Origin: Gammaproteobacteria bacterium
GTDB lineage: Bacteria; Pseudomonadota; Gammaproteobacteria; JAJFKG01
Assembly: GCA_965116795.1 (NCBI GenBank)
Contig: OZ220716.1
Location: 717,067-781,066 of the forward strand
Length of the DNA: 64,000 nucleotides
Direction: 5' to 3'
The position numbers and the translations under genes were made by a program. The stretch's first letter is position 1; every line of letters starts with the position of its first letter. Positions 10,866-31,156 of this stretch are shown here, one piece after another. The notes under the pieces are model-generated. The model had not been told where the DNA came from and made no database searches. It saw only the letters and a list, made by a program, of their open reading frames with translations.

Positions 10866-11918
10866 ATGCTAATTTATTTCACTTATCTATTAACATTTAT
10901 TGTGACGGTCATGTGTATTCACATGATTAAGCTAATCGCTGAGCGCATTTGTTTAGTCGATATACCCAATCCACGCAAACATCACCCAGAACCAGTGCCG
11001 TTAGTTGGTGGGATAGCCATTGTTTTTGGCATTGGTATTGGTTTATTAGTCCTAGATATATCGATTGCGCCATACCGTAGTTTTCTGGCCGGGATAATAC
11101 TGATGGGATTCGTTGGCTTACTCGATGATTTTCACGAATTAAAACCACACACACGACTATGGACACAAATTATTGTTGGTTTATTGATGACGATTTGGGG
11201 GGAGGTTTATCTACATACTTTCGGTAATATTTTATTTGTTGATCCGATTGTATTAGGTAATTGGGGGATCCCTATCACTATTTTTGCCTTAGTTTGCATT
11301 ATCAATGCGATCAATATGCTAGATGGTTTAGATGGCTTAGCAGGCGGTATCAGTTGGATACAGCTGACAATGTTATTTATCATTGCAGGTGTTGAAGGTC
11401 GTTTAATGGATATGCATATTTTAGCATTAATTGCAGCAGCCTTATTAGGGTTTCTTGTATTCAATTTCCCATTTAACCGTGCTCGTGTAGCCAGTGTGTT
11501 TATGGGAGATGCTGGCAGTATGGTATTGGGGTTTTGCTTAGTGTGGTTTACAGTGAGTTTGTCCCAAGGAGCACAAGCGATTGCGCCGGTTGTCATGTTA
11601 TGGGTGATGATTGTGCCGATTTTTGATTTTTGTGGTGTTGTCAGTTTACGCTTATTGCAACGTCAACCATTGCTAAAGCCTGATCGTCAACATATCCATC
11701 ATTGGTTACAACAGATGGGCTTACATCCACGCACAATTACCATGATTTTAAGTTTAGTGACGTTAATAACCAGTAGTTTAGCGTTTATTTTAAATAAAAT
11801 TGGTGTTGCTGATGGTTATTTATTTATAGGGTTTATGTTGTTATTTATTGGCTATTTGAGTGGTATAGTTTGGTTTTTAAGGCATGTTGATATACAGAAC
11901 TATCAAAAAAAGAAATAA
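10866..11918 (+). CDS. polyprenyl-phosphate N-acetylhexosamine-1-phosphate transferase (WecA/WbpL/MraY family, GT4 superfamily initiating transferase)
   Basis: 350-aa polytopic membrane protein with the NAINMLDGLDGLAGG motif diagnostic of the MraY/WecA family. Confidence 0.8.
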   Translation: MLIYFTYLLTFIVTVMCIHMIKLIAERICLVDIPNPRKHHPEPVPLVGGIAIVFGIGIGLLVLDISIAPYRSFLAGIILMGFVGLLDDFHELKPHTRLWTQIIVGLLMTIWGEVYLHTFGNILFVDPIVLGNWGIPITIFALVCIINAINMLDGLDGLAGGISWIQLTMLFIIAGVEGRLMDMHILALIAAALLGFLVFNFPFNRARVASVFMGDAGSMVLGFCLVWFTVSLSQGAQAIAPVVMLWVMIVPIFDFCGVVSLRLLQRQPLLKPDRQHIHHWLQQMGLHPRTITMILSLVTLITSSLAFILNKIGVADGYLFIGFMLLFIGYLSGIVWFLRHVDIQNYQKKK

Positions 11919-11978
11919 ATACTATTTTATATTGTCACTTCATGAAGATATAACAACAAGTTAATAGAGTATTAAATT

Positions 11979-12420
11979 CATGACAATCTATTGGTTACTT
12001 TTTTTATTTCCTGCATTGATGACACTATCACCTAATCTAGTTGATCAGCAGAAACAGAATTACTTACTATTGGTCTATGGCATCGCTGCCACACTGATTA
12101 TTGGATTGCGATATCAAGTGGGTAGGTAGTGATTGGGGTGCCTACCTTAATCACTATATAGATTATGCTAACTACGATAGCTTATTTAGTTTGATAAAAA
12201 ATAGTAGACACGAAATTGGCTAGTTGCACAGTTAGGTGGAGGTATTACCAGTGTTAATTTAGTCTGTAGTGCTTGTTTAATGAGTGGGTTAGTGCAGTTT
12301 TGCCGAAAACAACCTTTACCTTGGTTAGCACTTGCAGTAGCAGCGCCATTTATCATTATTGTAGTTGGTATGGGTTATACTCGTCAGTCAGTCGCATTAG
12401 GATTTATTTTATTATCAAGG
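11979..12420 (+). pseudogene. decayed EpsG/Wzy-type polysaccharide polymerase remnant. N-terminal third only, with at least two frameshifts or stops.
   Basis: Frames joined by eye read MTIYWLLFLFPALMTLSPNLVDQQKQNYLLLVYGIAATLIIGLRYQVGR* / DWGAYLNHYIDYANYDSLF... / ...LPWLALAVAAPFIIIVVGMGYTRQSVALGFILLS. This is the characteristic EpsG-family start (GxRYxVGxDWxxY ... RQxxAxxxLL). It is truncated where the convergent GT gene ends at 12415. Confidence 0.55.
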
Positions 12421-13542
12421 TTCAAGCTTTTGATAAATTATCAGGTGTTTGTTAATAACAGACTTAATATCGAATGTACGCTCTGCCAGTTGACGTCCAG
12501 CATTTCCCATTCGTTGACAACCAATAGGATCATCTAATAGTTGCTTAATTGCAGTGGCTAATGCTTGGGGATCACGTGCAGGTATTAATAGACCCGTTAC
12601 TCCAGGTTCTATCGCATCACGGCAGCCGGGTACATTTGTTGTGATGACCGCGCGTGCGCAAGCAGCAGCTTCAATTAACACTTTAGGTAAACCTTCGCCA
12701 TAATAAGATGGTAGTACCACTGCATATCCGCTAGATAACACATTGGGCATGTCTGTACGATATCCCCAATAGTGGATATAACCTTGTTTAACCCAATTCT
12801 CAATGTCAGTTAATTGTAGACTGGATGGGTTGCCTGGGTCGCATTTACCAACTAATACGAAATGAGCATCATATCCAGATTGACTAATGATTTGAGCTGC
12901 TTTAACGAATTCATGAATACCCTTTTCGGCAAGTAAACGTGCTGCCATGATGATAGTCGGTTTTTCTGTCGGTAACGGTTTTATTGAATAATCATTTAAG
13001 TTAACACCGGACCCTCGAATTAATGTGGTTTTTGCTATTGGTAATTGGGTAAGCTGTATTAATAGGCGACGATCATCTTCATTTTGAAAAATAACATGTA
13101 TGTTAGGATGAGCAAATACACGTTGATAAGCAATATTAATGAATTTGCGCAATATATTGGTTTTTATATTTTGATTAGTATACATAAAACCCAAACCAGG
13201 GACTGCAACTACCAGTGCAGGTGCTTTAGTGATACGGGCAGCAATCCCGCTCAATAAAACCGGTTTAATAGTAATAGCATGTACTAATGTAGGTTTTATT
13301 TTTTTTATGATGGTAACAAGATGCAATAATGTTAATAGATTAGATAAGGGATTTAAGCTTTTCCTATTAAGATGTAAAGAATGTACTATTAATCCATTTG
13401 TCCGTAATATATCTGCTTTATCAGTAAGTGGTGTTGCAATATGCACTTCATAGCCTTGCTCGATTGCAGCCAGTGCAATAGGCAAACGATGTGACAAGAA
13501 TGACCAATCGACATTTGTGATAAAAAGCAACTTGTTTTGCAC
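12415..13542 (-). CDS. glycosyltransferase, GT4 family (GT-B fold; WbuB-like)
   Basis: 375 aa with the C-terminal EX7E-type motif region (GEGLPKVLIEAAACARAVITTN). Confidence 0.8.
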   Translation of the reverse strand: MQNKLLFITNVDWSFLSHRLPIALAAIEQGYEVHIATPLTDKADILRTNGLIVHSLHLNRKSLNPLSNLLTLLHLVTIIKKIKPTLVHAITIKPVLLSGIAARITKAPALVVAVPGLGFMYTNQNIKTNILRKFINIAYQRVFAHPNIHVIFQNEDDRRLLIQLTQLPIAKTTLIRGSGVNLNDYSIKPLPTEKPTIIMAARLLAEKGIHEFVKAAQIISQSGYDAHFVLVGKCDPGNPSSLQLTDIENWVKQGYIHYWGYRTDMPNVLSSGYAVVLPSYYGEGLPKVLIEAAACARAVITTNVPGCRDAIEPGVTGLLIPARDPQALATAIKQLLDDPIGCQRMGNAGRQLAERTFDIKSVINKHLIIYQKLEP

Positions 13543-13581
13543 TGCATTTATCCTTGAAGAATGAAGTAATGTAAATACTGT

Positions 13582-14589
13582 TTATACATTAAAGTAGTCA
13601 CGATACCATGTAACAAAACGAGTGATACCTTCTTGTATGTTAGTAGTTGGTTTATAATGGAATTGTTTCACTAAATCATCTACATCAGCATAAGTATCTG
13701 GCACATCACCGGGCTGTAAAGGTAGTAATTCTTGTCTAGCTTTTTTTCCTAATGCTTTTTCTAAAGCAGTAATGTAATTTGATAATTCGATCGGTTGATT
13801 ATTCCCGATATTGTAAATGCGCCATGGTGCTTTGCTAGTACTGGGATCAGGATTGTTACTATTCCAATTTGGATTGCTTTGTGCTGGGTGGTCCAAAACG
13901 CGGATAATGCCCTCAACAATATCATCTACATAAGTAAAGTCACGACGGTGTTTGCCATAGTTAAAAACCTTAATTGGTTTTCCAGATAAAATGGCTTTAG
14001 TAAATGTAAACAATGCCATATCTGGGCGTCCCCAAGGTCCATAGACAGTAAAAAAGCGCAAGCCAGTGGTTGGTAAATCATAAAGGTGGCTATAAGTATG
14101 TGCCATTAGCTCATTGGATTTTTTGCTGGCAGCATAAAGACTAAGTGGGTGATCAACATTATGTTGCACTGAAAATGGCATCGTAGTATTAGCACCATAA
14201 ACACTTGAACTGCTGGCATAGACTAAATGTTCAATATTATTATGTCGGCAACCTTCTAAGATATGTGCGAAACCGACAATGTTGCTATTGATATAAGCAA
14301 GCGGATTTTCAATAGAGTAGCGTACACCTGCTTGTGCGGCTAAGTTAACAACTCGTTGTGGTTGGTATTGAGCAAAGCAATCATTTATAGCTTGTTGATC
14401 GGCAAGATCAATGCGTAGGTGTGTATATTGTGGATTATCAATGTGACGAGCAAGTCGTGCTTCTTTAATGGCAGGATCATAGTAGTCGTTATGGTTATCA
14501 ATACCAATGATGGTATCACCGCGTTCAAGTAAACGCAGTACTAATGCAGAACCAATAAATCCAGTAGATCCAGTGACTAATATATTCAT
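13582..14589 (-). CDS. NAD-dependent UDP-glucuronate 4-epimerase (UDP-GlcA to UDP-GalA), SDR-extended family
   Basis: N-terminal [28 protein letters not shown] and YxxxK (YAASKKSNE) motifs. Overall similarity to the Cap1J/LpsL-type epimerase family. Confidence 0.75.
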
Positions 14590-14744: not shown

Positions 14745-16514
14745 CTACTTTTGATTCTTTAAAGTTACTGTACCCTGACTAACTTCATATATTTTGTTAC
14801 AACCAACAATAGTTTCTGGTCTGTGAGATACAATAATTATGGTTTTTTGCTTAGCTATTTGATTTAATTCACTAATAATTTGTTTCTCAGTGGTTATATC
14901 TAACGATGAAGTCCCTTCATCCAGAATAATAATATCTGGGTCATTGTATAAAGCACGTGCAATGCATAATCGTTGTTTTTGTCCACCAGATAGTCTAATT
15001 CCATTTTCCCCCACGCTTGTTTCGAGCCCTTGTTCCAAGCTTTGAATAAAATCAGATAAGTTTACTAAAGATAATAATTTTTCTATTCTTTTTAAATCGA
15101 TTTCTTCATTATCTATGCCTAATGCAATGTTTGCTTTTATACTATCATCGACTAGATAATAGCTTTGAGGAACATAACCTATATTGGTCATCCAATTAAG
15201 GCTAAAATAGTCAAGAGGGTGACCATCTATTAAAATTTCACCCGAGCTAGGTTTCAAGAGACCTATTAGTAAGTCAACTAAAGTTGATTTTCCAGCACCT
15301 GAGCGACCAATAATTGCGATTGAATCACCTTTATTAATCTCAAAGTTAATATTACTGATAACATTATCTTTTGTTCTTGGATATTTAAAACTTACATTAT
15401 TAAATTTAATGTTTTGATTAAAATGCTTGGTTTTGTGCTGTTTTTCATATTTGGCATCATGTAGCATTGCTAGATTATCAGGTGTATTCATTTCTTTTGA
15501 GAGTAATTCTAAAGTAGGGATAGTGGATGTCATCATTGAAAGGCTAGTTACAACTTGATTAACTGATGGTAGGATTCTAAGTGCAGCAGCAGCAAAAACT
15601 GAAATCTTAATAACTATTGTTGTTGGATCTACTCCAAACCAAAACTCGGCTGCCATTAAACTTAATACAGCGCAAACAACAACAAACTCTAAGAAAAATC
15701 GTGCAGACGTAGTAATAACATTAATTACCACGTCTGACTTTGTAGAGATTTCCAATGATTTTTTTAGCTGTTCAATAAAGAAATTTCGTTTATTTAAGCA
15801 GATTATTTCTTTAATGTTACGTAAGCTTTCCATTGTAGTGGCAATAGTTCTACTTAATAACTTCTGAGAAGTCCTTGCATTTTGCATTAGCATTTTTTGA
15901 GTGATAGTGCCATAAAATAAAGCAGCAATAATTAAAATGCTTGCAAGAATCGTAGTTGCACGCCAATCATAGATCAGCAAGAAACTAAGGATAAAGATCG
16001 AAATAATTCCTTGCGTTAAAAAAGTGAGAAGCCCCATCATTAATTTTGATGCAAAAAGGGCAGTTTCTTGTTTAAGATTTTTAACAAGTTTTGCATGATT
16101 CTGCTGTATATGAAAATTATAATCTTCCCATAAATACTTTTTAAATAAACGCAATGTGATTCTTTTTTTATTGTTAAAAACGAATTGCATACGTTTTACT
16201 TGTAAATAGAATAACATGCTGTTTTTAATCGCGAATAAGAATACTAAAAAAATCGCGCCAAATAAAATGATTCCAACTTGTGTACTGTTTTCAAATAAAA
16301 GGTGTAATTTTTGAAACCAAGCATGTTGTTGAAATGATGTTGGTTGGAGTAACAATGTTATAAATGGGATCAACATCCCAATACTGACGGTTTCTAGAAG
16401 AGCACTGAAAATCATTAAATACAGTAACCAGGCAAACTTTTTCTTTTCTTGTTGTGTCAATAATGTTTTGATGGTGGTTAAATATTTATAGTTCTTTAAT
16501 GTATTTTTCATCAA
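14745..16514 (-). CDS. fused TMD-NBD ABC exporter (MsbA/PglK-like half-transporter)
   Basis: 589 aa: a six-TM N-terminal domain, then Walker A GRSGAGKST, signature LSGGQKQRLCIARAL and Walker B IIILDEGTSSLD. Very AT-rich. Confidence 0.85.
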   Translation of the reverse strand: MMKNTLKNYKYLTTIKTLLTQQEKKKFAWLLYLMIFSALLETVSIGMLIPFITLLLQPTSFQQHAWFQKLHLLFENSTQVGIILFGAIFLVFLFAIKNSMLFYLQVKRMQFVFNNKKRITLRLFKKYLWEDYNFHIQQNHAKLVKNLKQETALFASKLMMGLLTFLTQGIISIFILSFLLIYDWRATTILASILIIAALFYGTITQKMLMQNARTSQKLLSRTIATTMESLRNIKEIICLNKRNFFIEQLKKSLEISTKSDVVINVITTSARFFLEFVVVCAVLSLMAAEFWFGVDPTTIVIKISVFAAAALRILPSVNQVVTSLSMMTSTIPTLELLSKEMNTPDNLAMLHDAKYEKQHKTKHFNQNIKFNNVSFKYPRTKDNVISNINFEINKGDSIAIIGRSGAGKSTLVDLLIGLLKPSSGEILIDGHPLDYFSLNWMTNIGYVPQSYYLVDDSIKANIALGIDNEEIDLKRIEKLLSLVNLSDFIQSLEQGLETSVGENGIRLSGGQKQRLCIARALYNDPDIIILDEGTSSLDITTEKQIISELNQIAKQKTIIIVSHRPETIVGCNKIYEVSQGTVTLKNQK

Positions 16515-16732: not shown

Positions 16733-17653
16733 TTATCTTATACGCTTTTCAATTTCGCTGACAAAAATTTTGAAAGGAGGTAGTAAGCAGGCTAATATTA
16801 AAAAAAAATGGCCTTTCCAAGATTTGTTTCTGAAATAGTAGAATTTTGCATAACTTTGTAAAATTGCGCCAAGATAGACTTTATGCTTTTGTAAATACTT
16901 TTTATGTTTTTTACGTAGCATTAATGCATATTGTAAAGGTTTTGTGCCAGATTTGTCTATAGTTTGGGTTTTATGTTGGATGACAAGAGGCTTATCGACA
17001 GATATGAAGTATCCACCCTTTAGGGCAACACGTATTGCTAAATCCCACTCAGCAGCACGTCTAAAGCTTGTATCAAATCCAAATTCTTCTAAAATTTTTT
17101 TAGAGGCCATCATAGTGCAGCTTCCAAATTGTCCCCATACATAATTTTTTACTTTTTTATGCCACAAAAGGAAATCAGCGACCATTGAGTCATGTGGTTC
17201 TGGTGTTTTATGTCCAATGGCTTTAACAAAGCCATCTGACTTTTCAATACCATTAATAAATACTCGTCTGTGTGAATAGCAAAGTACAGCACATCCTGGA
17301 TGCTGCGTTTGGAATTTTGTAAGTCGTTTATATTGCTTAGTTAAGCGGTCTGTACTGTGTTCATCATCATCATCAAAAAAAGCGATATATTCACCTTTGG
17401 CGTTTTTAATAATTGTATTAAGTGCAGCAGGATAACCTTGGTTTTCTTTATGACGAAACAAATTGATTTTTTCGTTATTTTCTTGAAATGTTTTAATTAT
17501 TTTAGCGGAGTTATCTTTTGAACCATCATCAACAATAATAATTTCAAAATTAAGCCAATCTTGTTTTTGAGCACTTTCTATGGCTCTTCTTATGGTTTCA
17601 GCAGCGTTAAAACATGTTATTCCAATTGTTATTAGAGGGATGGATTTTGTCAC
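16733..17653 (-). CDS. glycosyltransferase family 2 (GT-A fold)
   Basis: N-terminal PLITIGITCFN....IIIVDDGSKD and DDDDE motifs. Paralogous to 25519-26496 and 26496-27476. Confidence 0.85.
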   Translation of the reverse strand: MTKSIPLITIGITCFNAAETIRRAIESAQKQDWLNFEIIIVDDGSKDNSAKIIKTFQENNEKINLFRHKENQGYPAALNTIIKNAKGEYIAFFDDDDEHSTDRLTKQYKRLTKFQTQHPGCAVLCYSHRRVFINGIEKSDGFVKAIGHKTPEPHDSMVADFLLWHKKVKNYVWGQFGSCTMMASKKILEEFGFDTSFRRAAEWDLAIRVALKGGYFISVDKPLVIQHKTQTIDKSGTKPLQYALMLRKKHKKYLQKHKVYLGAILQSYAKFYYFRNKSWKGHFFLILACLLPPFKIFVSEIEKRIR

Positions 17654-21309: not shown

Positions 21310-21590
21310 AAGCATCTTAATGGATTTTTCTTGGTATGAAATGAAGTATTTAGCTAAACAGCTTAAAAGGCTTGTGCAATTTGAATCTCTATATACCGGG
21401 TGTCCTGTACTTTGTATTCACATCGACGAATTTTTGTAAACGATATTGAAAAGCCAGATGCTTTTGTGCAAGCAATAGGGTGTCGATCACCTGAACCACA
21501 TGGTCTTATAGTTGCTGATTTTCTGCTATGGCATAAAATAAATAAGGATTATACTTGGGGTGCCTTTGGAAGCTGTACTATAACGCGGGT
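21310..21590 (+). pseudogene. internal fragment of a GT2 glycosyltransferase paralogue (frameshifted and truncated)
   Basis: Two frames read ...AKQLKRLVQFESLYTGCPVLC / YSHRRIFVNDIEKPDAFVQAIGCRSPEPHGLIVADFLLWHKINKDYTWGAFGSCTI. These are colinear with residues around KRLTKFQTQHPGCAVLCYSHRRVFINGIEKSDGFVKAIGHKTPEPHDSMVADFLLWHKKVKNYVWGQFGSCTMM of the GT2 at 16733-17653. Homology stops abruptly at about 21586. Confidence 0.75.
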
Positions 21591-22020
21591 GTTGTTGATG
21601 GATATGGGCTTGGCGGGCGTTGTTTGCATTGCCATAAGGCAGCGCGCCTATTATCCACTGGCATAGCGTTTCTACTGACAATGTCAGTCCGTGAACTTCA
21701 GTCAATTTCTCATGAGCAAACGTTGGTCCGAAGTTAGAGTAATGGCTCTTTACCAGGGTCAGTGCTTGCTGTTTCAGTGTATCCGGAAAACGACGATTGC
21801 TTGGTTTGCCACAGTGTTTCGATTGCAAATCAGACGTGCCTTCTCGTTCGTAAGCACGGATTAATCGCCTTAATTGGCGAGTACTCAGACCCGATTACTC
21901 CGCTCCTGCAATCTGGCTCAGTTGCTTTGATTTTATCCGCTCTATCACCTGGGCTCGGCTTAGTTTCTGTTCGCTCATCGCATACCTCTGGTCTGTCATT
22001 TTTCTCTCCACTTCTAATAG
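21590..22020 (-). mobile_element. remnant of an insertion-sequence transposase gene (N-terminal HTH region only, frameshifted). Resembles ISNCY/IS1202-group transposase N-termini. No IRs or catalytic domain.
   Basis: The minus strand reads MSEQKLSRAQVIERIKSKQLSQIAGAE* then (-1) GLSTRQLRRLIRAYEREGTSDLQSKHCGKPSNRRFPDTLKQQALTLVKSHYSNFGPTFAHEKLTEVHGLTLSVETL... The local sequence is markedly more GC-rich than the flanking DNA. It abuts the GT2 fragment. Confidence 0.6.
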
Positions 22021-23436: not shown

Positions 23437-24405
23437 TTGTTGTACCATAGTGTGGCAGGATATTGCACGATGACTTTACTAATCATTAATATGAGTTTTA
23501 TTACTGATTATTTTCAATGCAGCATATCAATTGTTAAGCAAAATATAGGATTCTACTCACAAACTATTCATTTGACTAAAAAAAATAAAGAATCTACAGA
23601 AATTTTTTTGGGAAAGATAATAATGGCTAGCCTATACGTTCATGGAAAGAGTTTTATTAATCGTCTTATATGGCTTAATTCTCTTATGAGGGGAATATTG
23701 CCTGCTGTGATATATCTTATCCAAGCACGTGGAAAACCAATGAAGATTGGCCATGCATTTTATAATAACGTAGAGTTAGAATTTCGTAATTGTGATTCCA
23801 CAGCTTTAAAAGAAGTTTTAGTTGATGCAGAATATAATTTTCTGAAAGAATTTTTGAAATCATCTCTGTCGCCTGTCATTGTAGATGTCGGCGCTCATAT
23901 AGGAACCTTTTCACTTTGGGTTTATTATCAGAACCCTAAAGTCAAAATGTTAATGGTAGAGGCTAATCCAACAAGTCATCAAATTCTCGTTCGCAATATT
24001 AGGAAAAACTTTTCTGCCAAACAGTACAAAATTCTCAACAAAGCTGCATGGAAGAATAATGACGTTTTAAAATTTTTTACAGCTGGTGACAGCATGGGGA
24101 ATAGAGTATCAGAAAAAGGAGATATTAAAGTTAGTGGTGTGACATTCGTTGAAATTGTTAATATGGTTATTGCAAATAATTCTTCAATTGACCTAATGAA
24201 AATTGATATTGAAGGAGCAGAAGAAGCTTTCTTTGAAACAGCAGATTTAGTATTAGATAAAGTAAGACGTCTTGTTATTGAATTACATCCTAAATATTGT
24301 AATACAGAATCTATTATACAAAAACTAGAGAGACGCTATAAACATATTAGAGAAATTTCTAGTCGTATAGATTCTAAGCCTCTTCTCTATTGCACAGATG
24401 AGTAA
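23437..24405 (+). CDS. FkbM-family methyltransferase. The probable true start is ATG 23623 (MASLYVHGK...).
   Basis: VIVDVGAHIGTFSLW and IDLMKIDIEGAEEAFF are the hallmark FkbM motifs. Confidence 0.75.
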   Translation: MLYHSVAGYCTMTLLIINMSFITDYFQCSISIVKQNIGFYSQTIHLTKKNKESTEIFLGKIIMASLYVHGKSFINRLIWLNSLMRGILPAVIYLIQARGKPMKIGHAFYNNVELEFRNCDSTALKEVLVDAEYNFLKEFLKSSLSPVIVDVGAHIGTFSLWVYYQNPKVKMLMVEANPTSHQILVRNIRKNFSAKQYKILNKAAWKNNDVLKFFTAGDSMGNRVSEKGDIKVSGVTFVEIVNMVIANNSSIDLMKIDIEGAEEAFFETADLVLDKVRRLVIELHPKYCNTESIIQKLERRYKHIREISSRIDSKPLLYCTDE

Positions 24406-24418
24406 AAATCATTTGTCT

Positions 24419-25522
24419 TTACATATACTCTTTTAATAAATTTTCCCACTTATCAAAGATTTTCTCAGGCTTATACTGCTTCATGGATTTAATAGCATTT
24501 ATACTAAACCGTTTTCTCTTTTCTGGTGAAAGCATCAATTCCTTTAAACAATAAGCTAGTGTCTCTGGGCTGCCATTCTGTTCTGCGAGTAAACCATTAT
24601 ATTCATGTTGTATTAATATATTCGTGCCATCGCAATCTTTATAACCAATGCAGGGTAACCCATGTGACATAGCTTCAGCAATAACATTTGGAAAACCTTC
24701 CCATTTTGATGGTAAAACAAATAAATGTGCTTGACAATAAAGCGAGCTAGTATTTTTTACGTTACCTTTAAATATTACTTGTTTAGTTAACTTTAATTTT
24801 TCAACTTCTGCTTCAAGCTGTATACGGTCTTCTCCATCACCTGCAAGCATTAATTGCCAATCAGGAAAGTCTTGATAAATTAAAGAAAATGCTTTTATTA
24901 AGGCATATTGATTTTTTTGGTATGCTAATCTACCAATGCAAAGTAATATTTTGTTTTTTGTATTTTCAGCTGGTTTTGCAAAATTAGTTGCAGGCAAGAC
25001 AGGATTTTCAATACAAATCATTTTATGGTGTAAAAATTTAGGGTAATCTTTTATATAGCTAGGAAGTTGGACAGTGATTTTATCTGCTAGTCTAAATGTT
25101 TGTAAGATAAAATTTCTTCTTGTACCAGATTTAGTATGATTTAAACGTGAAATGGCATTTCGTTCTGCTGCAATGATTGGGATCTTAAATCCAAATAAAA
25201 AGAACTTAAAACTAAGGAAGGCACCATGTTGAAATGCTAAGATAATGTCAGGTTTAATACGTTCCACAATTTTTCGCACTTTAAATGCTCTTTTAATACG
25301 TGTTAGCCAGTTTGCTTTTTTTAGATGGTTTTGTATATCCATTACATGCCAATCAATTTGATTATCTATTTTATAAAAAGCGTTTTTGGTATTCTCTTTA
25401 TCCCAGGTGAAAAGCGTTACATTATATTTCCGATTAACCATTTCATTCATGAGCATAATAGCCATGCGTTCAACACCACCAGCCATATTATTAAAAGAAC
25501 GACACACGAAAAGTATTTTCAT
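24419..25522 (-). CDS. glycosyltransferase, GT4 family (GT-B). Paralogous to 27486-28598.
   Basis: 367 aa. N-terminal MKILFVCRSFNNMAGGVERM. C-terminal PSKWEGFPNVIAEAMSHGLPCIG (E-X7-E region). Confidence 0.8.
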   Translation of the reverse strand: MKILFVCRSFNNMAGGVERMAIMLMNEMVNRKYNVTLFTWDKENTKNAFYKIDNQIDWHVMDIQNHLKKANWLTRIKRAFKVRKIVERIKPDIILAFQHGAFLSFKFFLFGFKIPIIAAERNAISRLNHTKSGTRRNFILQTFRLADKITVQLPSYIKDYPKFLHHKMICIENPVLPATNFAKPAENTKNKILLCIGRLAYQKNQYALIKAFSLIYQDFPDWQLMLAGDGEDRIQLEAEVEKLKLTKQVIFKGNVKNTSSLYCQAHLFVLPSKWEGFPNVIAEAMSHGLPCIGYKDCDGTNILIQHEYNGLLAEQNGSPETLAYCLKELMLSPEKRKRFSINAIKSMKQYKPEKIFDKWENLLKEYM

Positions 25523-26496
25523 CTTAATTTAACTTCTTTTCGCATATTTTTTTCATGAGACACTCGTTTTAAAATACTAGTTAGCATTCTGTTTGTAAGT
25601 AAAATAGGATGCAGTAACCATAAAATAATCATTAGTTTTACCATTTTAAAATGTTGGTTAGTAAAGTGGTAGAATCGAACTTTAGGCCATGTTTTTGCGT
25701 AAAAATATACTTTTTTTCTTTTTAAATACTTTTTATTTTTTTGTGCTAATAATGATTCTCCTTGTAGATTTTTCATTGGGGATTTATCTTGTGCATTTGT
25801 TGAATATTGTGTAAATAGATTCTCTTTACAACCAATGAAATATCCACCTTTAAATCCAAGCCGTATCGCAAAATCACAATCTTCTAATCTGCGTAGATTG
25901 GTATCAAATTTTCCAACAATATTGAAAGTTGTTTTCCTTGCCATTAAACAACATGTTGGTGTTCCTCTGCCATAAAATACCCCTTTTTCTTGCTTATAGT
26001 ACAGCAAATAGTCGACAATTTGTGTGCCTTGTGGTGGTAGAAGTTCTGATCCTATTGCAGTTAATTTTAAAGTATATCCATTTGAGTATAATCGATAACC
26101 CGAAGCGTAACATGCAATTAAATGTGTATTAAGTGATTTTTCATATGCAATAATATTATGATATTGTTTCGTTAGTCGATTTGGCATGCTCTCATCATCA
26201 TCGTCAAAAAATGCAATAAAATCGCCTTTAGCATTATTTATAATTGTATTCCTAGTGCTTCCTACGCCCATATTTTTTTTATGCATGATCAATGTAATTG
26301 GAATATGGTCATATTGCACCATAATAGAGTTAACAATGTTAACTGACTGGTCTGTTGAGCAATCATCCACAAGCACTATTTCAAAATTAGGCCAGTCTTG
26401 TTGTAGTGCACTTTTTACAGCTTTTGCAATAGTATCTTGTGCATTGTAACAAGTAATGCCGATAGTAATTAAAGAAGTGTAGTTGGCTTTTGGCAT
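25519..26496 (-). CDS. glycosyltransferase family 2
   Basis: SLITIGITCYNAQDTIAKAVKSALQQDWPNFEIVLVDDCSTD, DDDDE. Confidence 0.85.
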   Translation of the reverse strand: MPKANYTSLITIGITCYNAQDTIAKAVKSALQQDWPNFEIVLVDDCSTDQSVNIVNSIMVQYDHIPITLIMHKKNMGVGSTRNTIINNAKGDFIAFFDDDDESMPNRLTKQYHNIIAYEKSLNTHLIACYASGYRLYSNGYTLKLTAIGSELLPPQGTQIVDYLLYYKQEKGVFYGRGTPTCCLMARKTTFNIVGKFDTNLRRLEDCDFAIRLGFKGGYFIGCKENLFTQYSTNAQDKSPMKNLQGESLLAQKNKKYLKRKKVYFYAKTWPKVRFYHFTNQHFKMVKLMIILWLLHPILLTNRMLTSILKRVSHEKNMRKEVKLR

Positions 26497-27476
26497 TATT
26501 TCGCTATTCTCTTATAGAAAATGATTGAATGTAGATTTGTTTTTAGATTAGGTAATGCCCAACTAATTTTTCTAAGGGTTTTTATTGGGTATTGTAAAAA
26601 TAATATTAATATTTTAAGAAAAGGTATGAGTTTTTTACCTGCTAAAAACCTACACTTTATATCTTGCCATTTCTTACAAAACAGGTAAGAAAAGTATTTG
26701 TCTATAAATTCTTCATATTCATCTAGTAATTTTTGCCTGTAGAAAAATGTCTTTTCCAAATTCTTATCATTTGTATATGTCATTTTCTGAATAACTAATG
26801 CGTCTTTAATACCAATAACTTGGCCATTTGATAATCCGAGTCTAACGTTTAATTCAGTATCTTCTGATAATCTAAATGTTTCATCAAATAAACCTAATTT
26901 TTCATAAGTTATTTTCCTTCCCATCTGTGAGCAAGTTGCGCAGGCTCCATTTCCTGCTTTAGGGTATCCAAATAGAATTTTTCTTGCTATATCAAGCCCC
27001 GTTGGTGCTGGGAGTTTTTCGTTCGTTGCCATGGTTTGCACATATTGAAACTGTCTATCACAATATATTTGCTTTCTTGCTGTATGGCACAACAAATTCT
27101 TTTTATTATACTTTTTTTCATATTCAATTATTCTATAATATTGTCTTGTTAGCCTATTTGATAGACTTTGATCATCATCATCAAAGAAAGCAATAAAACT
27201 ACCCGATGCATTTTTTATAATTGTATTTCTAGCACCAGCGACGCCGGTGTTTTTTTTATGTATTATTAATTTAAAAGATATATTTTGATGTTGGGCTAAT
27301 ATATTATTGATATTTTTAACAGAATTGTCAGTAGAACAATCATCGACGATAACAATTTCAATGTTAGTCCAGGCTTGTTGTAAAGCACTTTTAATTGCAT
27401 CTTCTATAGTATCTTGTGCGTTGTAACAAGTGATGCCTACTGTAATTAATGGCATGGACTTCTGCTTGGTATTCAT
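26496..27476 (-). CDS. glycosyltransferase family 2
   Basis: PLITVGITCYNAQDTIEDAIKSALQQAWTNIEIVIVDDCSTD, DDDDQ. Near-identical N-terminal region to the adjacent GT2. Confidence 0.85.
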   Translation of the reverse strand: MNTKQKSMPLITVGITCYNAQDTIEDAIKSALQQAWTNIEIVIVDDCSTDNSVKNINNILAQHQNISFKLIIHKKNTGVAGARNTIIKNASGSFIAFFDDDDQSLSNRLTRQYYRIIEYEKKYNKKNLLCHTARKQIYCDRQFQYVQTMATNEKLPAPTGLDIARKILFGYPKAGNGACATCSQMGRKITYEKLGLFDETFRLSEDTELNVRLGLSNGQVIGIKDALVIQKMTYTNDKNLEKTFFYRQKLLDEYEEFIDKYFSYLFCKKWQDIKCRFLAGKKLIPFLKILILFLQYPIKTLRKISWALPNLKTNLHSIIFYKRIAK

Positions 27477-27485
27477 ATTAATTGC

Positions 27486-28598
27486 TTAATGAGAATGTAA
27501 ACATGGGTATGCTACTTTTTTAATTAACTTTTCCCACTGATCCACCACATTTTTTATACTATATTTCCCTAGCTCTTTTTTGGCTTGTTGGCCTAATCTT
27601 TCCCGTAATTGTTGTGAACATATCAATTGTTCAAGTCCTTGTGCAAAGGCATGCGCTTTATTTTGCCCACTAACTAAAATACCATTTTGATTGTTGGTAA
27701 TCAATTCATTGGTACCTGGACAATCTGCAAAACCAACAACAGGTAACCCATATAACATTGCTTCTGCAGTTACAAGTCCAACACTCTCATAAAGAGAAGG
27801 CATAGCAAATATAGTTGCTTTTGCATATTCTCTTTCTATATGTTGCGTACTTCCAGGTAAATGCACTCTATCTTGTAAATTATAATTTGTTATTAATTTT
27901 TCTAATGCTGGGCGCAGCTTACCTTCACCTATAATATGAACGTTCCAATCGGGGTATTTTTTCGCAAGTGAAGCGAAAGCATGAATCAGATCGGCGTGAT
28001 TTTTTTGGTTGTCTAAACTCCCAATACTTAAAATAATATTTCTATTATATTCTTTTTTGATTCCTTCAAAATTTTGTACTGGATTAGGAATGGATTGCAT
28101 TTTTCTTTTTATAAGCCAAGGATAACCACCCTTATTTTTTTTGGAAACAGCGGCAATAGTAATTTTTCTAAATTTTAGTTGTAATAATAAAAATAATAGT
28201 AGTACAAGCTTTCTATTTTTGTAATTTTGAAAAACATTATGTTCACTTGCAATTATTGGTGTTTTATCACCTAACATAGCCATACCCGTCGGTATAAACG
28301 TACTACACATAAACGGTATAATAACATCGGGTACTATTTCTTTGATAATTTTTCTCAGTCGATTTATTCGTTTGAATAAATCGATAAAGTTTGTTTGAAC
28401 TTGACTATTTCCTATATCAAGGAATAACAATTTTATTCTAGGATCAAAAGAGTAGAATGATTTGACTTCTTCTTTGTCAAATGTCAATAGATAAATTTGG
28501 TACCCTCTATTGACTAGTTCTTCACTAATATTTGCCAAGACTCTTTCTGCTCCACCGCCTTTGACTGCAATGGATTTAATCGTAAATAATAATTTCAT
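27486..28598 (-). CDS. glycosyltransferase, GT4 family (GT-B)
   Basis: 370 aa. MKLLFTIKSIAVKGGGAERV...; PSLYESVGLVTAEAMLYGLPVVG. Confidence 0.8.
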   Translation of the reverse strand: MKLLFTIKSIAVKGGGAERVLANISEELVNRGYQIYLLTFDKEEVKSFYSFDPRIKLLFLDIGNSQVQTNFIDLFKRINRLRKIIKEIVPDVIIPFMCSTFIPTGMAMLGDKTPIIASEHNVFQNYKNRKLVLLLFLLLQLKFRKITIAAVSKKNKGGYPWLIKRKMQSIPNPVQNFEGIKKEYNRNIILSIGSLDNQKNHADLIHAFASLAKKYPDWNVHIIGEGKLRPALEKLITNYNLQDRVHLPGSTQHIEREYAKATIFAMPSLYESVGLVTAEAMLYGLPVVGFADCPGTNELITNNQNGILVSGQNKAHAFAQGLEQLICSQQLRERLGQQAKKELGKYSIKNVVDQWEKLIKKVAYPCLHSH

Positions 28599-28790
28599 TT
28601 TACGCTACTTTTGCATAATGTTGCGTAATCATACACTGCCTATCGCTATACAGGAAATATCAGGAAGCACTTTGTTATGTTCTTCGAAAATAAATTTATC
28701 GTCCAAAATCCTTCCAAAATCCCTTGCCCTCCTGCCCTATTTCTGCTCTAATGCCTGCCTATTTTTCACCGCTTTGAAGGCAATTCATCA

Positions 28791-30164
28791 ATGAACGTTA
28801 CGGTTTATGGTGCAGGTTACGTGGGTTTGGTCACAGGTACATGTCTAGCCGATGTCGGCAATGATGTACTCATTGTTGATATCGATAAAGATAAAATAGA
28901 TCAGCTAAATCAAGGTGATGTACCCATCTATGAGCCTGGCTTACAAGAATTGCTCGTCAAAAATACTGCCACTGGACGTCTGCGTTTTACCACCGACCCC
29001 AAGCAAGGTGTTGCTCACGGTTTGTTTCAGTTCATTGCTGTTGGGACGCCACCTGATGCCAATGGCGCGGCTGATCTGCGTTATGTATTCGATGTGGCGG
29101 ATAAGATAGGTCAATATATGACCGAATATCGGATTATCGTCGATAAGTCGACAGTACCAGTTGGCACCGGTCAGCGGGTTATCGATACCATCCATAAAGC
29201 CCTTCACCAACGCCAACTCAACATACCCTTCGCTGTAGTCTCCAATCCTGAGTTTTTAAAAGAAGGGGCAGCATTAGCAGATTTCATGAAACCTGATCGG
29301 ATTATTGTGGGTACCGATTGCACGAAAGCAACTGAATTAATGCAAGCCTTATATGCACCGTTTAACCGCAATCATGATCGCTTTATGACAATGGATCGTG
29401 CGTCAGCTGAATTAACTAAATATGCCGCTAATGCATTACTGGCAACCAAAATCAGTTTCATGAATGAACTAAGTCACGTTGCTGAGCTCGTTGGTGCTGA
29501 CATTGAACATGTTCGTCGTGGTATTGGTTCGGATCCACGTATTGGTTATCATTTTATTTATCCAGGCTGTGGTTACGGTGGTTCATGTTTTCCAAAAGAC
29601 ATTAGTGCATTACGTACTACTGCTAATCAACATAGTTACAACCCTAGGTTGCTTAGCGCCGTTGAACAAGTCAATGATCAGCAAAAACAAGTCTTATTTA
29701 ACAAGATTACGCAGTACTATCAACATAAATTAGCGGGAAAAACATTTGCATTATGGGGATTAGCGTTTAAACCAAATACTGATGATATGCGTGATGCACC
29801 AAGTCGAGTGTTGCTCGAAGCGCTATGGCAAGCTGGTGCAGTGGTACAAGCGTATGATCCAGTTGCGATGGCAGAAGTGAAACGTATCTACGATGATCGC
29901 GATGATTTAGTTTTATGTGACACTGCACAAGCAGCGTTAACTAATGCAGATGCATTGATCATCGTTACCGAGTGGCGTGAGTTTTATACGCCGACATTTG
30001 CTTGGTTTACCCAGGAATTGCGTGAACCAGTTATTTTTGACGGACGTAATGTGTATGACCCGAGTTTTATGGCATCACAAGGTATACAGTATTTTGCAAT
30101 TGGCCGCGGTCAATCGATACAAACTAGTCAACACATTAAGCAGCCTGATCCAGATCTCGTGTAA
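28791..30164 (+). CDS. ugd: UDP-glucose 6-dehydrogenase
   Basis: [14 protein letters not shown] (NAD site), catalytic GGSCFPKD, 457 aa. Confidence 0.9.
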
Positions 30165-30205
30165 TCACATCTAATAACTAATTTTAATAACAGAGGTATT
30201 ATTAA

Positions 30206-31156
30206 ATGAAGAAAATCGGTATTCGTAAGGCAGTTTTCCCAGTTGCCGGTGTTGGTACACGTTTTTTGCCAGCAACCAAAGCAACGCCCAAAGAAATGTT
30301 GCCGATTGTAGATAAGCCCCTTATTCAATATGCAGTTGAAGAAGCCGTTGCTGCTGGTGTTACCGAGTTAATTTTTGTGACTAACAGCGGTAAACGTGCG
30401 ATTGAAGATCATTTCGATAGCGATCCTACCTTAGAAAAATATTTACACAACGCTGGCAAAGACGATTTGTTAGCTATTGTTAACGATATTCTACCTAGTG
30501 GGATTAACTGTGTTTATATCCGTCAGTCGCAGCCATTAGGGCTAGGCCATGCAATTTTGTGCGCGAAAAATGTTATTGGTAAAGAGCCATTTGCTGTGTT
30601 GTTGGCTGATGATCTAATCGACGGTGGCGAACGTTATTGTTTACAAAAGATGTTAGATATTCACAAAGCAACGGGCAGTGGTGTGATTGCCACTGAACAC
30701 GTTGCCAAACAACACGTTGATCAATACGGTATTATTGAATTAGATGAAGAAGAAGGCGGTTGTGCGCAAGTCAAACGCATTATTGAAAAACCTTCCCCAG
30801 ATAAAACAGAATCGACATTGGCTGCAATAGGCCGTTATATTTTAATGCCAAGCATCTTTAAGCACTTAGACAATACGGCACCGGGTGCTGGTGGTGAAAT
30901 TCAATTAACTGATGCGATTGCAACGCAACTAAATGAAGATCCAATGTATGTGCATCAAATTCAAGGTGTACGTTATGATTGTGGTAGTAAATTAGGTTAC
31001 TTAAAAGCAACAATCCAGTATGGTTTAAAACATCCAATGTTAGGCAATGATTTATTACATTATTTGCAAGATATTATTAATGCTGAATCACAGCAAGATG
31101 TTTCTTCATTAATTGATGCCGTTAAACAAATACCAGAGCCAGAAGAGTTAGTTTAA
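30206..31156 (+). CDS. galU: UTP--glucose-1-phosphate uridylyltransferase
   Basis: KAVFPVAGVGTRFLPATKATPKEMLPIVDKPLIQY is the canonical GalU N-terminus. Confidence 0.9.
   Translation: MKKIGIRKAVFPVAGVGTRFLPATKATPKEMLPIVDKPLIQYAVEEAVAAGVTELIFVTNSGKRAIEDHFDSDPTLEKYLHNAGKDDLLAIVNDILPSGINCVYIRQSQPLGLGHAILCAKNVIGKEPFAVLLADDLIDGGERYCLQKMLDIHKATGSGVIATEHVAKQHVDQYGIIELDEEEGGCAQVKRIIEKPSPDKTESTLAAIGRYILMPSIFKHLDNTAPGAGGEIQLTDAIATQLNEDPMYVHQIQGVRYDCGSKLGYLKATIQYGLKHPMLGNDLLHYLQDIINAESQQDVSSLIDAVKQIPEPEELV

Follow-up and report, generated by a model that had tools for sequence, protein, structure and literature searches.

Described Systems Closest to the Locus

The O antigen of Helicobacter pylori is made by the Wzk pathway, which comprises WecA, Wzk and WaaL and operates without Wzx, Wzy and Wzz (Hug et al. 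2010, PMC2841628). The glycan locus described here resembles this pathway in combining a WecA-type initiator with a single fused, PglK-homologous ABC protein and in having no Wzx, intact Wzy or Wzz; the glycan would likewise be finished on undecaprenyl diphosphate (Und-PP) in the cytoplasm and then flipped. An earlier note on this DNA had called the layout unlike any textbook one, which on the export side was overstated, since WecA plus a PglK homologue without Wzx, Wzy and Wzz is the Wzk arrangement (PMC2841628); the export logic is rare, yet precedented. Differences from H. pylori are that the genes are clustered here and scattered there, that the host is a gammaproteobacterium, that WaaL was not among the ORFs scanned in the window (the whole 64-kb stretch of DNA analysed), and that three methyltransferases, a flavoenzyme-containing module (GMC-MT1) and a Wzy pseudogene are present.

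In the Wzm/Wzt O-polysaccharide pathway of Escherichia coli O8/O9a, WecA-initiated cytoplasmic assembly is followed by ABC export, with terminal methylation involving WbdD. The present locus would share with it WecA-type initiation, assembly in the cytoplasm and export by an ABC protein, and it likewise contains methyltransferases, whereas its transporter belongs to the type IV fused half-transporters and is not an ABC-2 permease with a separate nucleotide-binding domain (NBD), and neither a WbdD-like kinase nor a coiled-coil terminator was found.

Gene Content and Composition

Pfam, NCBIfam and PDB searches reproduced all gene calls of the glycan locus, and each gene listed in the earlier note was found in its place (Table 1); this holds for the three GT4 and three GT2 transferases, the UDP-GlcA 4-epimerase, ugd and galU, the GMC flavoprotein oxidoreductase and the single ABC exporter with fused transmembrane domain (TMD) and NBD. 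Besides three decayed elements (a Wzy stub, an IS stub and a GT2 fragment), the locus holds 16 full-length ORFs with intact catalytic motifs. Its sequence was recovered in two further datasets with 99.99-100% identity.

Table 1. Features of the glycan locus, with positions in the 64-kb window.
Feature	Coordinates	Strand	Evidence
WecA/WbpL-family polyprenyl-phosphate N-acetylhexosamine-1-phosphate transferase (initiating enzyme)	10866..11918	+	PF00953 127 bits
EpsG/Wzy-type polymerase pseudogene	11980..12455	+	N-terminal ~40% left; at least 2 frame breaks
GT4a glycosyltransferase (GT4)	12415..13542	-	PF00534 113 bits, PF13477 75 bits
UDP-glucuronate 4-epimerase-like SDR	13582..14589	-	PF01370 200 bits; PDB 5u4q 466 bits
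ABC, PglK/Wzk-like fused TMD-NBD half-transporter	14745..16514	-	NCBIfam PglK 336 bits, MsbA 263, HepA 253
GT2a glycosyltransferase (GT2)	16733..17653	-	PF00535 127 bits
MT1, class I methyltransferase-fold protein, 240 aa	17870..18592	-	Methyltransf_11; motif I replaced
GMC-family FAD oxidoreductase, sugar-oxidising branch	18617..20191	-	GMC_oxred_C 80 bits
MT2, canonical class I SAM methyltransferase	20409..21107	-	PF08241 57 bits from profile position 2; motif VYDVGCGS
Fragment of a second GT2a-type gene	21400..21666	+	68% identical to GT2a residues 126-181
Transposase N-terminal HTH remnant, in-frame stop	21526..21999	-	HTH_28, HTH_32, HTH_Tnp_1 matches
MT3, class I SAM methyltransferase, 399 aa	22167..23366	+	PF08241 58 bits, PF13489 51 bits
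FkbM-family methyltransferase	23437..24405	+	PF05050 50 bits; TIGR01444 75 bits, above 37.7 cutoff
GT4b glycosyltransferase (GT4), PglH-like full length	24419..25522	-	PF00534 136 bits
GT2b glycosyltransferase (GT2)	25519..26496	-	PF00535 106 bits
GT2c glycosyltransferase (GT2)	26496..27476	-	PF00535 101 bits
GT4c glycosyltransferase (GT4), PglH/PglJ-like	27486..28598	-	PF00534 135 bits
ugd, UDP-glucose 6-dehydrogenase	28791..30164	+	three UDPG_MGDP_dh domains; TIGR03026 447 bits
galU, UTP-glucose-1-phosphate uridylyltransferase	30206..31156	+	TIGR01099 350 bits, above 326.8 cutoff

The initiating enzyme, a multi-pass membrane protein with many hydrophobic segments, scored 245 bits against TIGR02380 (ECA_wecA), below the cutoff of 326. 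In the PDB search, the epimerase-like SDR matched the Bacillus cereus epimerase 6zl6/6zla with 148 bits. GT2a carries a single C-terminal hydrophobic segment (residues 281-302). GT4c, GT2c, GT2b and GT4b lie 9 bp apart or overlap by 1-4 bp, indicative of an operon structure, and GMC and MT1 are separated by 24 bp.

The scan covered every locus ORF of 80 aa or more and, in the rest of the window, most of those of 150 aa or more; it yielded neither Polysacc_synt (Wzx) nor Wzz nor Wzm/Wzt, and likewise no WaaL, PglB or PglL. The absence of Wzx, Wzz and an intact Wzy stated in the earlier note was borne out, with Wzy present only as a frameshifted EpsG/Wzy stub.

The genes from ABC to GT4c have a GC content of 0.30-0.35 (GC3 0.21-0.28), compared with 0.39-0.46 (GC3 0.26-0.38) for the flanking genes, and the GC content between 13.0 and 28.7 kb is 0.330 versus 0.394 in the remainder of the window. 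These values support a compositionally distinct glycan cluster. The low-GC block claimed earlier is real, but the AT-rich extent had been drawn too wide: the island starts only at ~14.7 kb, with wecA, GT4a and the epimerase gene intermediate at 0.38, and ugd (GC 0.434) and galU are native in composition. A second low-GC patch is found at 44-47 kb in a HEAT-repeat gene, so that the dip is not unique within the window.

Proposed Pathway

We favour, with somewhat more confidence than doubt, the reading that this is a mosaic locus for glycan assembly, acquired horizontally and encoding the following pathway. The WecA-type transferase would start an Und-PP-linked glycan, which the six glycosyltransferases would extend on the cytoplasmic face, with UDP-GlcA and/or UDP-GalA, as predicted from galU, ugd and the 4-epimerase, among the donors. 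The three canonical SAM methyltransferases MT2, MT3 and FkbM would decorate the glycan, which would also be modified by a two-protein module of a cytoplasmic, sugar-oxidising GMC enzyme and MT1, a protein whose SAM loop is lost. Finally, the PglK/Wzk-type half-transporter would flip the finished lipid-linked glycan, presumably whole, in place of a Wzx/Wzy route. The glycan may finally be transferred to lipid A-core, by WaaL, or to a protein.

The GMC Flavoenzyme and Its Partner MT1

GMC has the N-terminal GSGPAG, an invariant FAD motif and invariant H460 and N503; neither a signal peptide nor a hydrophobic or transmembrane segment was detected in its sequence. PDB sequence matches were FAD-glucose dehydrogenase, fructose dehydrogenase and pyranose oxidase, and the same enzymes, together with C-glycoside oxidases, were the top Foldseek matches of the AF2 model (pLDDT 84), so that all close neighbours by sequence and structure are carbohydrate oxidoreductases. 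With Burkholderia FAD-glucose dehydrogenase alpha/gamma (6a2u), Gluconobacter fructose dehydrogenase (7w2j/8jej), bacterial pyranose oxidases and C-glycoside 3-oxidases (9fl2, 7qfd, 8qve, 7dve), GMC has in common the fold (E 1e-30 to 1e-22 and TM 0.55-0.66 in Foldseek), the FAD motif and the His/Asn catalytic pair, and the two closest of these enzymes likewise work with a small partner subunit. In contrast to them, GMC is only 15-22% identical, is predicted to be cytoplasmic, without Tat signal or cytochrome subunit, lies in a glycan biosynthesis locus instead of a catabolic or respiratory one, and has a methyltransferase-fold protein as partner. We infer that GMC oxidises a hydroxyl to a keto or aldehyde group on one particular residue, which is probably contributed by GT2a, the transferase that travels with the pair; alternatively, a nucleotide sugar or some non-sugar substituent may serve as its substrate.

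MT1 matches Pfam Methyltransf_11 with 40 bits, above the gathering cutoff, but the match skips profile positions 1-23. In place of motif I, the GxGxG loop that binds SAM, MT1 has an invariant HSEDVDY, and alignment with distant relatives revealed D to V, G to H and G to V changes at three key positions. The AF2 model, of moderate confidence (pLDDT 77.5), is without a helix between strands 1 and 2. Judged from sequence and model, MT1 appears to have lost SAM binding and would be a partner that does not methylate but helps to recognise the substrate or to target the membrane. In P0400, a degenerate MT1-like domain forms a fusion with a B12/radical-SAM enzyme, which agrees with targeting without catalysis.

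MT2, MT3 and FkbM are canonical methyltransferases. MT2, which is 30% identical to MT1 over the core and has the same C-terminal layout, is its distant paralogue, with homologues in 6 cassette loci; MT3, whose N-terminal ~150 aa are without an assigned domain, has homologues in L010, L028, L033 and L056. The earlier count of four methyltransferases, three of them class I SAM enzymes, is therefore to be revised: MT2, MT3 and FkbM stand, whereas MT1 has the class I fold without the SAM-binding glycine loop.

There are methyltransferases that function with an odd motif I, and MT1 might be an active enzyme with an unusual cofactor site, the oxidation by the pair being coupled to methylation; C6 could be taken to the carboxylate and then methyl-esterified, or C-methylation could occur beside the new ketone. 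The Pfam score, the strong conservation and conserved acidic and histidine residues that could form a catalytic site are in favour of this, but the three motif I substitutions, the skipped profile start, the missing helix and the three canonical methyltransferases already in the locus make it possible rather than probable.

For the GMC-MT1 pair, analogies may be drawn with two other systems. METTL14 (with METTL3) and Trm6 (with Trm61) are dead methyltransferase-fold partners of an active methyltransferase that act on RNA; MT1 would resemble them in its class I fold, its degenerate SAM site and its retention, under strong constraint, as an obligate partner, but it would pair with a flavoenzyme whose target is a glycan. 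In mycobacteria, decaprenyl-phosphoryl-ribose is epimerised by DprE1, of the VAO family, and DprE2, an NADH-dependent SDR reductase. GMC-MT1 might similarly pair a flavoenzyme oxidising a lipid-linked sugar hydroxyl with an obligate, neighbour-encoded protein, but GMC is not a VAO enzyme, MT1 is without a nucleotide-binding glycine loop, and no conserved reductase accompanies the pair.

The ABC Transporter and Export Route

The ABC gene probably starts at the ATG at 16511; the protein has ~6 hydrophobic segments and intact Walker A, signature, Walker B and H-loop motifs. As to whether it belongs to the Wzk/PglK or the MsbA clade, PglK was the best NCBIfam model, although its score is far short of the equivalog cutoff of 1000. 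Against the PDB, full-length PglK was the best half-transporter with 274 bits (MsbA, 180 bits). With the TMD alone, PglK was the sole half-transporter match (55 bits, E 7e-14), aligned over residues 17-325 with small gaps only and including the external-helix region, and MsbA was absent from the matches at E ≤ 0.001. R86, R260, R302 and R309 are what we take to be the four functionally important arginines of PglK; R260 and R302 are kept, whereas R309 is Q and R86 falls in an insertion relative to ABC, with only a Lys two positions downstream in ABC. Taken together, the profile and structure-database matches support ABC as a candidate PglK-type flippase for a lipid-linked glycan rather than an MsbA, and of the PglK/MsbA-like route suggested before, only the PglK-like half is retained.

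This likeness also fits general protein glycosylation of the Campylobacter Pgl type, in which the flippase would deliver a ~seven-sugar oligosaccharide to an oligosaccharyltransferase encoded elsewhere, and LPS would not be the destination. As in C. jejuni, one initiator and six transferases without polymerase or chain-length regulator suit a defined oligosaccharide, and both GT4b (NF050056 PglH 134 bits, residues 1-365 to profile 1-352 of 354) and GT4c (PglH 160 bits, PglJ 100 bits) align with PglH over the full length; GT4a matches PglJ weakly, and GT2a PglI. Every Pgl match is, however, far below its equivalog cutoff, the initiator is a WecA-like PNPT instead of PglC, bacillosamine genes are missing while uronic-acid supply genes are present, neither PglB nor PglL was found among the ORFs scanned in the window, and in H. 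pylori a PglK homologue serves LPS (PMC2841628). We consider this destination unlikely.

The decayed elements described in the earlier note were recognised again. A peptide stitched from three frames of the EpsG/Wzy remnant matched PF14897 (EpsG) with 63 bits over profile positions 2-128 of 326, and the GT2 fragment and IS remnant were supported by the identity to GT2a and by the HTH matches with the in-frame stop, respectively. The GT2a-type fragment occurs in L001, too. The Wzy pseudogene suggests a recent switch away from the Wzy route, and given the three decayed elements the locus could be partly inactive. Carried further, the locus would be the remnant of a decaying Wzy-dependent O-antigen cluster that no longer makes a complete product, which agrees with the missing Wzx and a small genome (source contig 2.45 Mb); but the 16 intact genes, the near-identical sequence in two other datasets and the intact alternative flippase in the operon render such decay quite improbable.

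There is less still to be said for ABC as an unrelated exporter of a drug, a peptide or lipid A that lies in the locus by chance, with the glycan flippase elsewhere. Its NBD drives high scores to many ABC families, it is only 26-29% identical to the ABCs of other GMC-MT1 loci, and many related cassettes use Wzx. Yet the TMD-only similarity to PglK, the position of the gene between the transferase/tailoring genes and the epimerase/GT4a genes, on the same strand and with equally low GC, and the missing Wzx make a chance neighbour very unlikely.

Recurrence of the GMC-MT1 Pair and Cassette

For the PglK-type locus as a single pathway, support came from other genomes. In 27 of the 31 informative genome loci (GMC homologue at least 34% identical), an MT1 homologue of 57-80% identity lies only a few kb away from the GMC homologue; none is present in any of the ~20 loci whose GMC is at most 31% identical. 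Across loci, MT1 is the more conserved protein (57-85% identity; GMC, 34-70%). The two genes are adjacent and co-directional in ~19 loci, where they either lie 3-150 bp apart or have overlapping ORFs, while in seven rhizobial or Rhodobacterales loci they are convergent or divergent, ~1 kb apart, which precludes co-translation there. GT2a is the commonest glycosyltransferase companion of the pair, with homologues of 38-63% identity in ~15 GMC-MT1 loci; apart from generic GT2/GT4, no further gene family is common to more than seven loci.

The cassette GT2c-GT2b-GT4b-GT4c-GMC-MT1-GT2a recurs, largely syntenic and at 37-53% identity, in L004-L008, L024, L028 and L033, covering three phyla; carriers are Micavibrio, Pseudobdellovibrionaceae, Krumholzibacteriia and unclassified MAGs, sometimes with MT2/MT3. 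The joint recurrence of nine locus genes in other phyla, together with the conserved GMC-MT1 pair, supports a single pathway. That GMC and the methyltransferases are mere passengers with no part in the glycan, as the earlier note had allowed and as only the mosaic look of the locus would suggest, is hardly credible, since GMC and MT1 lie inside glycan loci with the same GT2/GT4 genes, in synteny, in 27 genomes of several phyla. No paper on the GMC-MT1 pair was found in the literature; the pair is rare and unstudied, and occurs repeatedly in glycan loci from several bacterial phyla. The export partner beside the cassette or pair is Wzx in L033, L056 and L017, and a fused ABC in L003/L057, L009, L010/L058 and L020.

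Gene content of the glycan locus

ORF listing combined with profile searches reproduced the gene inventory of the earlier note at the same positions, and the three decayed elements described there (a Wzy stub, a GT2 fragment and a transposase remnant) proved to be real.

Genes and decayed elements of the glycan locus, including the preceding rpoH (GT, intact glycosyltransferases; MT, Methyltransf_11 proteins).
Feature	Position	Strand	Evidence
rpoH	9860-10738	+	ORF listing, profile searches
WecA/WbpL-family initiator	10866-11918	+	PF00953 127 bits; TIGR02380 245 bits
EpsG/Wzy N-terminal stub, three frames	~11980-12455		EpsG matched at profile positions 2-128 of 326 only
GT4a	12415-13542	-	ORF listing, profile searches
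SDR, nearest to UDP-glucuronate 4-epimerases	13582-14589	-	database comparison
Fused TMD-NBD ABC exporter	14745-16514	-	PF00664 and PF00005
GT2a	16733-17653	-	ORF listing, profile searches
MT1, Methyltransf_11-like	17870-18592	-	partial Pfam match
GMC oxidoreductase	18617-20191	-	GMC_oxred_C 80 bits
MT2	20409-21107	-	Pfam match, motif I VYDVGCGS
Fragment of second GT2a-type gene	21400-21666		68% identical to GT2a
Transposase N-terminus, in-frame stop	21526-21999		translation and domain search
MT3	22167-23366	+	Pfam match, motif I VLEVGYTSGG
FkbM methyltransferase	23437-24405	+	TIGR01444 75 bits
Operon GT4c-GT2c-GT2b-GT4b	24419-28598	-	9-bp gaps or 1-4 bp overlaps
ugd	28791-30164	+	ORF listing, profile searches
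galU	30206-31156	+	ORF listing, profile searches

Because its TIGR02380 score was below the cutoff of 326 bits, the initiating enzyme was assigned as a WecA/WbpL-family protein. Neither Wzx, Wzz, Wzm/Wzt, WaaL nor PglB was found in the locus or among the other window ORFs scanned, and no Wzy_C/WaaL match was obtained among the scanned ORFs of the 64-kb window. The RfaH ops element GGCGGTAG was not present anywhere in the window, and an Rfam scan of the window returned only one tRNA and a cobalamin riboswitch, both beyond the locus. The riboswitch (43107-43369(-); RF00174, 58 bits) immediately precedes a gene for a TonB-dependent receptor with BtuB-like matches (41071-43020(-)).

At the upstream edge of the locus, a HigB-type toxin gene (9259-9567; PF09907, 85 bits) and, downstream of it, an HTH antitoxin-like gene (8828-9262) occupy 8828-9567(-), between methionine ABC transporter genes and rpoH, just upstream of the latter and ~1.3 kb before the glycan locus begins. 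The methionine permease and an NlpA/MetQ-type lipoprotein are encoded there by a single ORF of 482 aa at 7336-8784(+) (BPD_transp_1 and Lipoprotein_9). At the downstream edge, a DUF4143/AAA_14 ATPase gene (31358-32554(+)) is located between galU and comM.

Composition, host and copies of the locus

The genes from the ABC exporter to GT4c had a GC content of 0.30-0.35 and a GC3 of 0.21-0.28, compared with a GC content of 0.39-0.46 in the flanking housekeeping genes. The AT-rich character attributed to the whole locus was present as a compositional dip; since wecA, GT4a and the epimerase gene were of intermediate composition and ugd and galU were native-looking, the island was delimited to ~14.7-28.6 kb, which is narrower than the span originally proposed. 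The dip is moderate, and another one was found at 44-47 kb of the window. This second low-GC patch (0.33-0.345) contains a gene for a 941-aa HEAT-repeat protein without NCBIfam match (44178-47003(+)), which may be another acquired gene.

The transketolase matched no database protein at more than 72% identity, and the next matches, at ~66%, were to various Gammaproteobacteria, among them a Legionellales MAG. Exact look-ups with the ABC, RpoH and Ugd proteins gave no match. The organism is an uncultured gammaproteobacterium that branches deeply. The locus of the same strain was recovered from two other datasets, as L001 (99.988% over 17.1 kb) and L002, and the whole-locus comparison covers this strain only. 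In L001, from a metagenome of 2.46x coverage, the ABC gene (9223-10990) and MT3 (2369-3567) are each in two pieces. Only two single-base gaps distinguish L001 from the window over the 17.1 kb, and the split genes are most likely assembly errors and not true pseudogenes.

The ABC exporter

The exporter is one polypeptide with an N-terminal six-helix TMD (~6 hydrophobic segments) and a C-terminal NBD with fully preserved ATPase motifs (Walker A GRSGAGKST, signature LSGGQKQR, Walker B IIILDEGTS, H-loop SHR). It had been described as MsbA-like. Comparison with NCBIfam gave PglK as the best model at 336 bits, followed by MsbA (263 bits) and HepA (253 bits), all under their own cutoffs, that of the PglK equivalog being 1000 bits. 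Against half-transporters of solved structure in the PDB, the full-length protein scored 274 bits with PglK and about 180 bits with MsbA; with the TMD alone, PglK was the only half-transporter matched (55 bits, E 7e-14) and MsbA was not matched at E <= 0.001. The protein is, thus, closer to PglK, TMD included, and on the TMD evidence an identity as MsbA was rejected. The alignment of the TMD with PglK spans residues 17-325 with small gaps only and is gap-free in the external-helix region. Of the PglK cavity arginines, R86, R260, R302 and R309, reported as functionally important in the PglK structure paper, R260 and R302 are kept and R309 is replaced by Q, while R86 falls within a PglK insertion, with a Lys of the query two positions downstream.

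Judged by sequence, the exporter is PglK-like and not a PglK orthologue. Its architecture and best match place the export logic with the Wzk/PglK kind, at a score short of the orthologue cutoff, and make the ABC protein a candidate flippase of Und-PP-glycans. A Wzx/Wzy-dependent pathway does not describe the locus, where no Polysacc_synt (Wzx) protein is encoded and Wzy occurs only as the frameshifted stub with its broken, partial EpsG match. Likewise, Wzm/Wzt-type ABC-2 exporters have the permease and the NBD as separate proteins and, in many cases, a carbohydrate-binding domain, whereas the locus encodes a single ABC protein, which is of the fused ABC_membrane type. Full-length alignment with PglH was obtained for GT4b (134 bits) and GT4c (160 bits), which may lend the locus a Pgl-like flavour, short of established orthology.

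The O antigen of Helicobacter pylori is produced with a WecA-type initiator and a PglK homologue, without Wzx, Wzy or Wzz (PMC2841628). The window likewise has a WecA-type initiator and a PglK homologue and no functional Wzx, Wzy or Wzz in the locus, so that the arrangement, which the earlier note did not regard as a textbook layout, has a precedent on its export side. The locus would be a clustered example of a PglK/Wzk-type route outside the Epsilonproteobacteria.

The GMC enzyme

The GMC protein contains the FAD motif GSGPAG at residues 23-28 and matched GMC_oxred_C well above the cutoff of 24.6 bits, while GMC_oxred_N, at 21.4 bits, was slightly below its cutoff of 23. H460 and N503, which align with the motifs of 6a2u, are invariant in 33 homologues, and the FAD motif and the histidine of STHPKA are invariant among the homologues as well. 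Among proteins of solved structure, the nearest by sequence were the catalytic subunits of two enzymes, the FAD-glucose dehydrogenase of Burkholderia and the fructose dehydrogenase of Gluconobacter; bacterial pyranose oxidases came next. Foldseek analysis of the AF2 model (pLDDT 84) returned the same neighbours and, in addition, C-glycoside 3-oxidases, with E-values of 1e-30 to 1e-22 (best, 1.5e-30) and TM values of 0.55-0.66. Neither a signal peptide nor a hydrophobic segment was found in the protein. It is a member of the GMC oxidoreductase family, and the substrates of its neighbours (glucose, fructose, pyranoses and C-glycosides) point to a sugar substrate; we infer a cytoplasmic enzyme oxidising a sugar hydroxyl. 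Oxidised sugars are usually made as nucleotide sugars ahead of assembly. With a conserved cytoplasmic GMC flavoenzyme encoded in glycan loci, the glycan itself would also be oxidised, and unusual residues would be expected in these glycans.

One homologous GMC enzyme, P0066, has a C-terminal extension of ~300 aa beginning VCGSGWRVKRFILPAL, which gave no Pfam match and is suggestive of a nucleotide-binding Rossmann fold.

Pairing of the GMC enzyme with MT1

The GMC family is large, with full-length homologues being 43-70% identical. A survey with one genome per species yielded 53 loci, each of which was searched with all window proteins. MT1 was present in 27 of the 31 informative loci where the GMC protein was >= 34% identical and absent from all ~20 loci with a GMC identity <= 31%. 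It is the better conserved protein, at 57-80% in genome loci (up to 85% in metagenomes) versus 34-70% for GMC. In ~19 loci, the genes for the two proteins lie side by side in the same orientation, with gaps of 3-150 bp or overlapping ORFs. Because all-against-all clustering revealed no other family in more than seven loci except generic GT2 and GT4, MT1 is the only specific partner of the GMC enzyme; beyond MT1, GT2 and GT4, no conserved reductase, aminotransferase or other partner was found across 34 loci.

Among the carriers are Micavibrio, Parvibaculaceae, Sphingomonas canadensis, several Mesorhizobium, Ensifer adhaerens, Rhizobium sp. Leaf453, Devosia, Rhodobacterales, a deltaproteobacterium, Pseudobdellovibrionaceae, Krumholzibacteriia and a gammaproteobacterial MAG. 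Literature searches returned no paper on this pair, nor on a GMC enzyme encoded among O-antigen, capsule or EPS genes. The pair is a rare, cross-phylum module of a GMC enzyme and a degenerate methyltransferase and the noteworthy element of the locus.

The nearest relative of the module (GMC 70%, MT1 85% identical) is found at 1-11718 of locus L056 in the order GMC-MT1-FkbM-MT3-GT2a-Wzx-FkbM, with genes for phage tail proteins (Collar, GpJ FNIII) a few kb away, and may be a prophage-borne, glycan-modifying cassette. This phage-tail neighbourhood is a single case; tblastn of MT1 against phage and plasmid collections gave no match, and no specific PHROG family was found.

The larger cassette and its export partners

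Beyond the pair, a cassette GT2c-GT2b-GT4b-GT4c-GMC-MT1-GT2a was detected in the loci L004-L008, L024, L028 and L033, at 37-53% identity and in largely syntenic arrangement, frequently accompanied by MT2 and/or MT3. According to this synteny, nine genes of the window locus co-travel across at least three phyla, which is good evidence for one product, and there is good support for a single, coherent pathway of glycan synthesis that uses a PglK-type exporter. The chemistry of the glycan proposed in the earlier note (O-methylation, an oxidised uronic acid) and the acceptor are matters of inference.

Wzx occurs with the cassette or the pair in L033, L056 and the Mesorhizobium locus L017, the last also having a WbaP-type initiator, and a fused ABC protein of the HepA/PglK/MsbA type occurs in L003/L057, L009, L010/L058 and L020. 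The window locus resembles a combination of this cassette with wecA, GT4a, the epimerase gene and the PglK-like flippase, with the dead wzy and the IS scar apparently marking the joins. The dead wzy beside the cassette hints that export routes are swappable under the same cassette.

In Micavibrio (L057, 12411-15390) and Sphingomonas canadensis (L058, 13834-18300), the pair adjoins genes for a CMP-activated acidic sugar, comprising an HMGL-like aldolase or NeuB, a CTP_transf_3 cytidylyltransferase and an HAD or inositol-phosphatase-like gene, together with the fused ABC exporter; none of these acidic-sugar genes was found within the window. A role of the pair in making riburonic acid, as in Mesorhizobium EPS, was dropped, nothing tying that EPS to these genes.

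MT1 and the possible role of the pair

Four methyltransferases had been assigned to the locus. Three of them, MT2, MT3 and the FkbM protein (VDVGAHIGT; TIGR01444 cutoff, 37.7 bits), keep motif I, with the Pfam matches of MT2 and MT3 beginning at profile positions 2 and 1, respectively. MT1, of 240 aa, does not: its Pfam match covers profile positions 24-95 only, skipping 1-23, and motif I, (D/E)xGxGxG, the SAM-binding loop that follows strand 1, is absent, the site reading TLVVHSEDVDY, with HSEDVDY taking the place of the loop across the family. H52, S53, E54 and D55 at this site show no variation among 33 MT1 homologues or among the 27 locus copies. When 1.84 billion representatives were searched with a profile, more distant relatives sharing this architecture emerged in which LDVG(S/G)xxG is retained; the GMC-linked MT1 clade has accordingly undergone three substitutions, D to V, G to H and G to V. 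The contigs of two distant MT1 relatives, P0391 and P0421, are too short for informative neighbourhoods. Among further homologous proteins, P0400 combines B12-binding, radical SAM and degenerate MT1-like domains in one fused protein, and P0410 is a GT4 fused to an MT1-like domain that keeps an LDVGA-type loop.

MT1 has a Rossmann-like seven-strand fold of the class I methyltransferase type, but it lacks the defining cofactor motif and was not filed as a methyltransferase. The substrate-side motif HE.P..FF.FT is kept in MT1 and is common to the canonical MT2 of the window locus. Our preferred reading, tentative and short of even chances, is that MT1 no longer methylates and would act as a substrate-recognition or targeting partner of the flavoenzyme. 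The main rival explanation holds that MT1 still methylates, using an atypical cofactor site. MT1 is conserved above its enzyme partner yet without the cofactor loop, and a pseudo-enzyme adaptor of this kind would be unusual for glycan biosynthesis.

A fuller proposal, likewise short of even chances, is that the pair may be an undescribed two-component glycan-tailoring system, in which a SAM-less subunit of methyltransferase fold would recognise the substrate and target the membrane, bringing the sugar-oxidising flavoenzyme, itself cytoplasmic, to a single residue of a glycan still linked to its lipid. This residue would thereby become a keto, aldehyde or post-assembly uronic sugar of a kind that nucleotide-sugar pathways do not supply, in a system portable across phyla with Wzx or ABC export. 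Sensitivity to phages, recognition by the immune system and interaction with hosts depend on surface glycans. The pair was found in cultured strains of Sphingomonas, Mesorhizobium, Ensifer and Rhizobium and, owing to this presence in cultured rhizobia and Sphingomonas, is experimentally testable.
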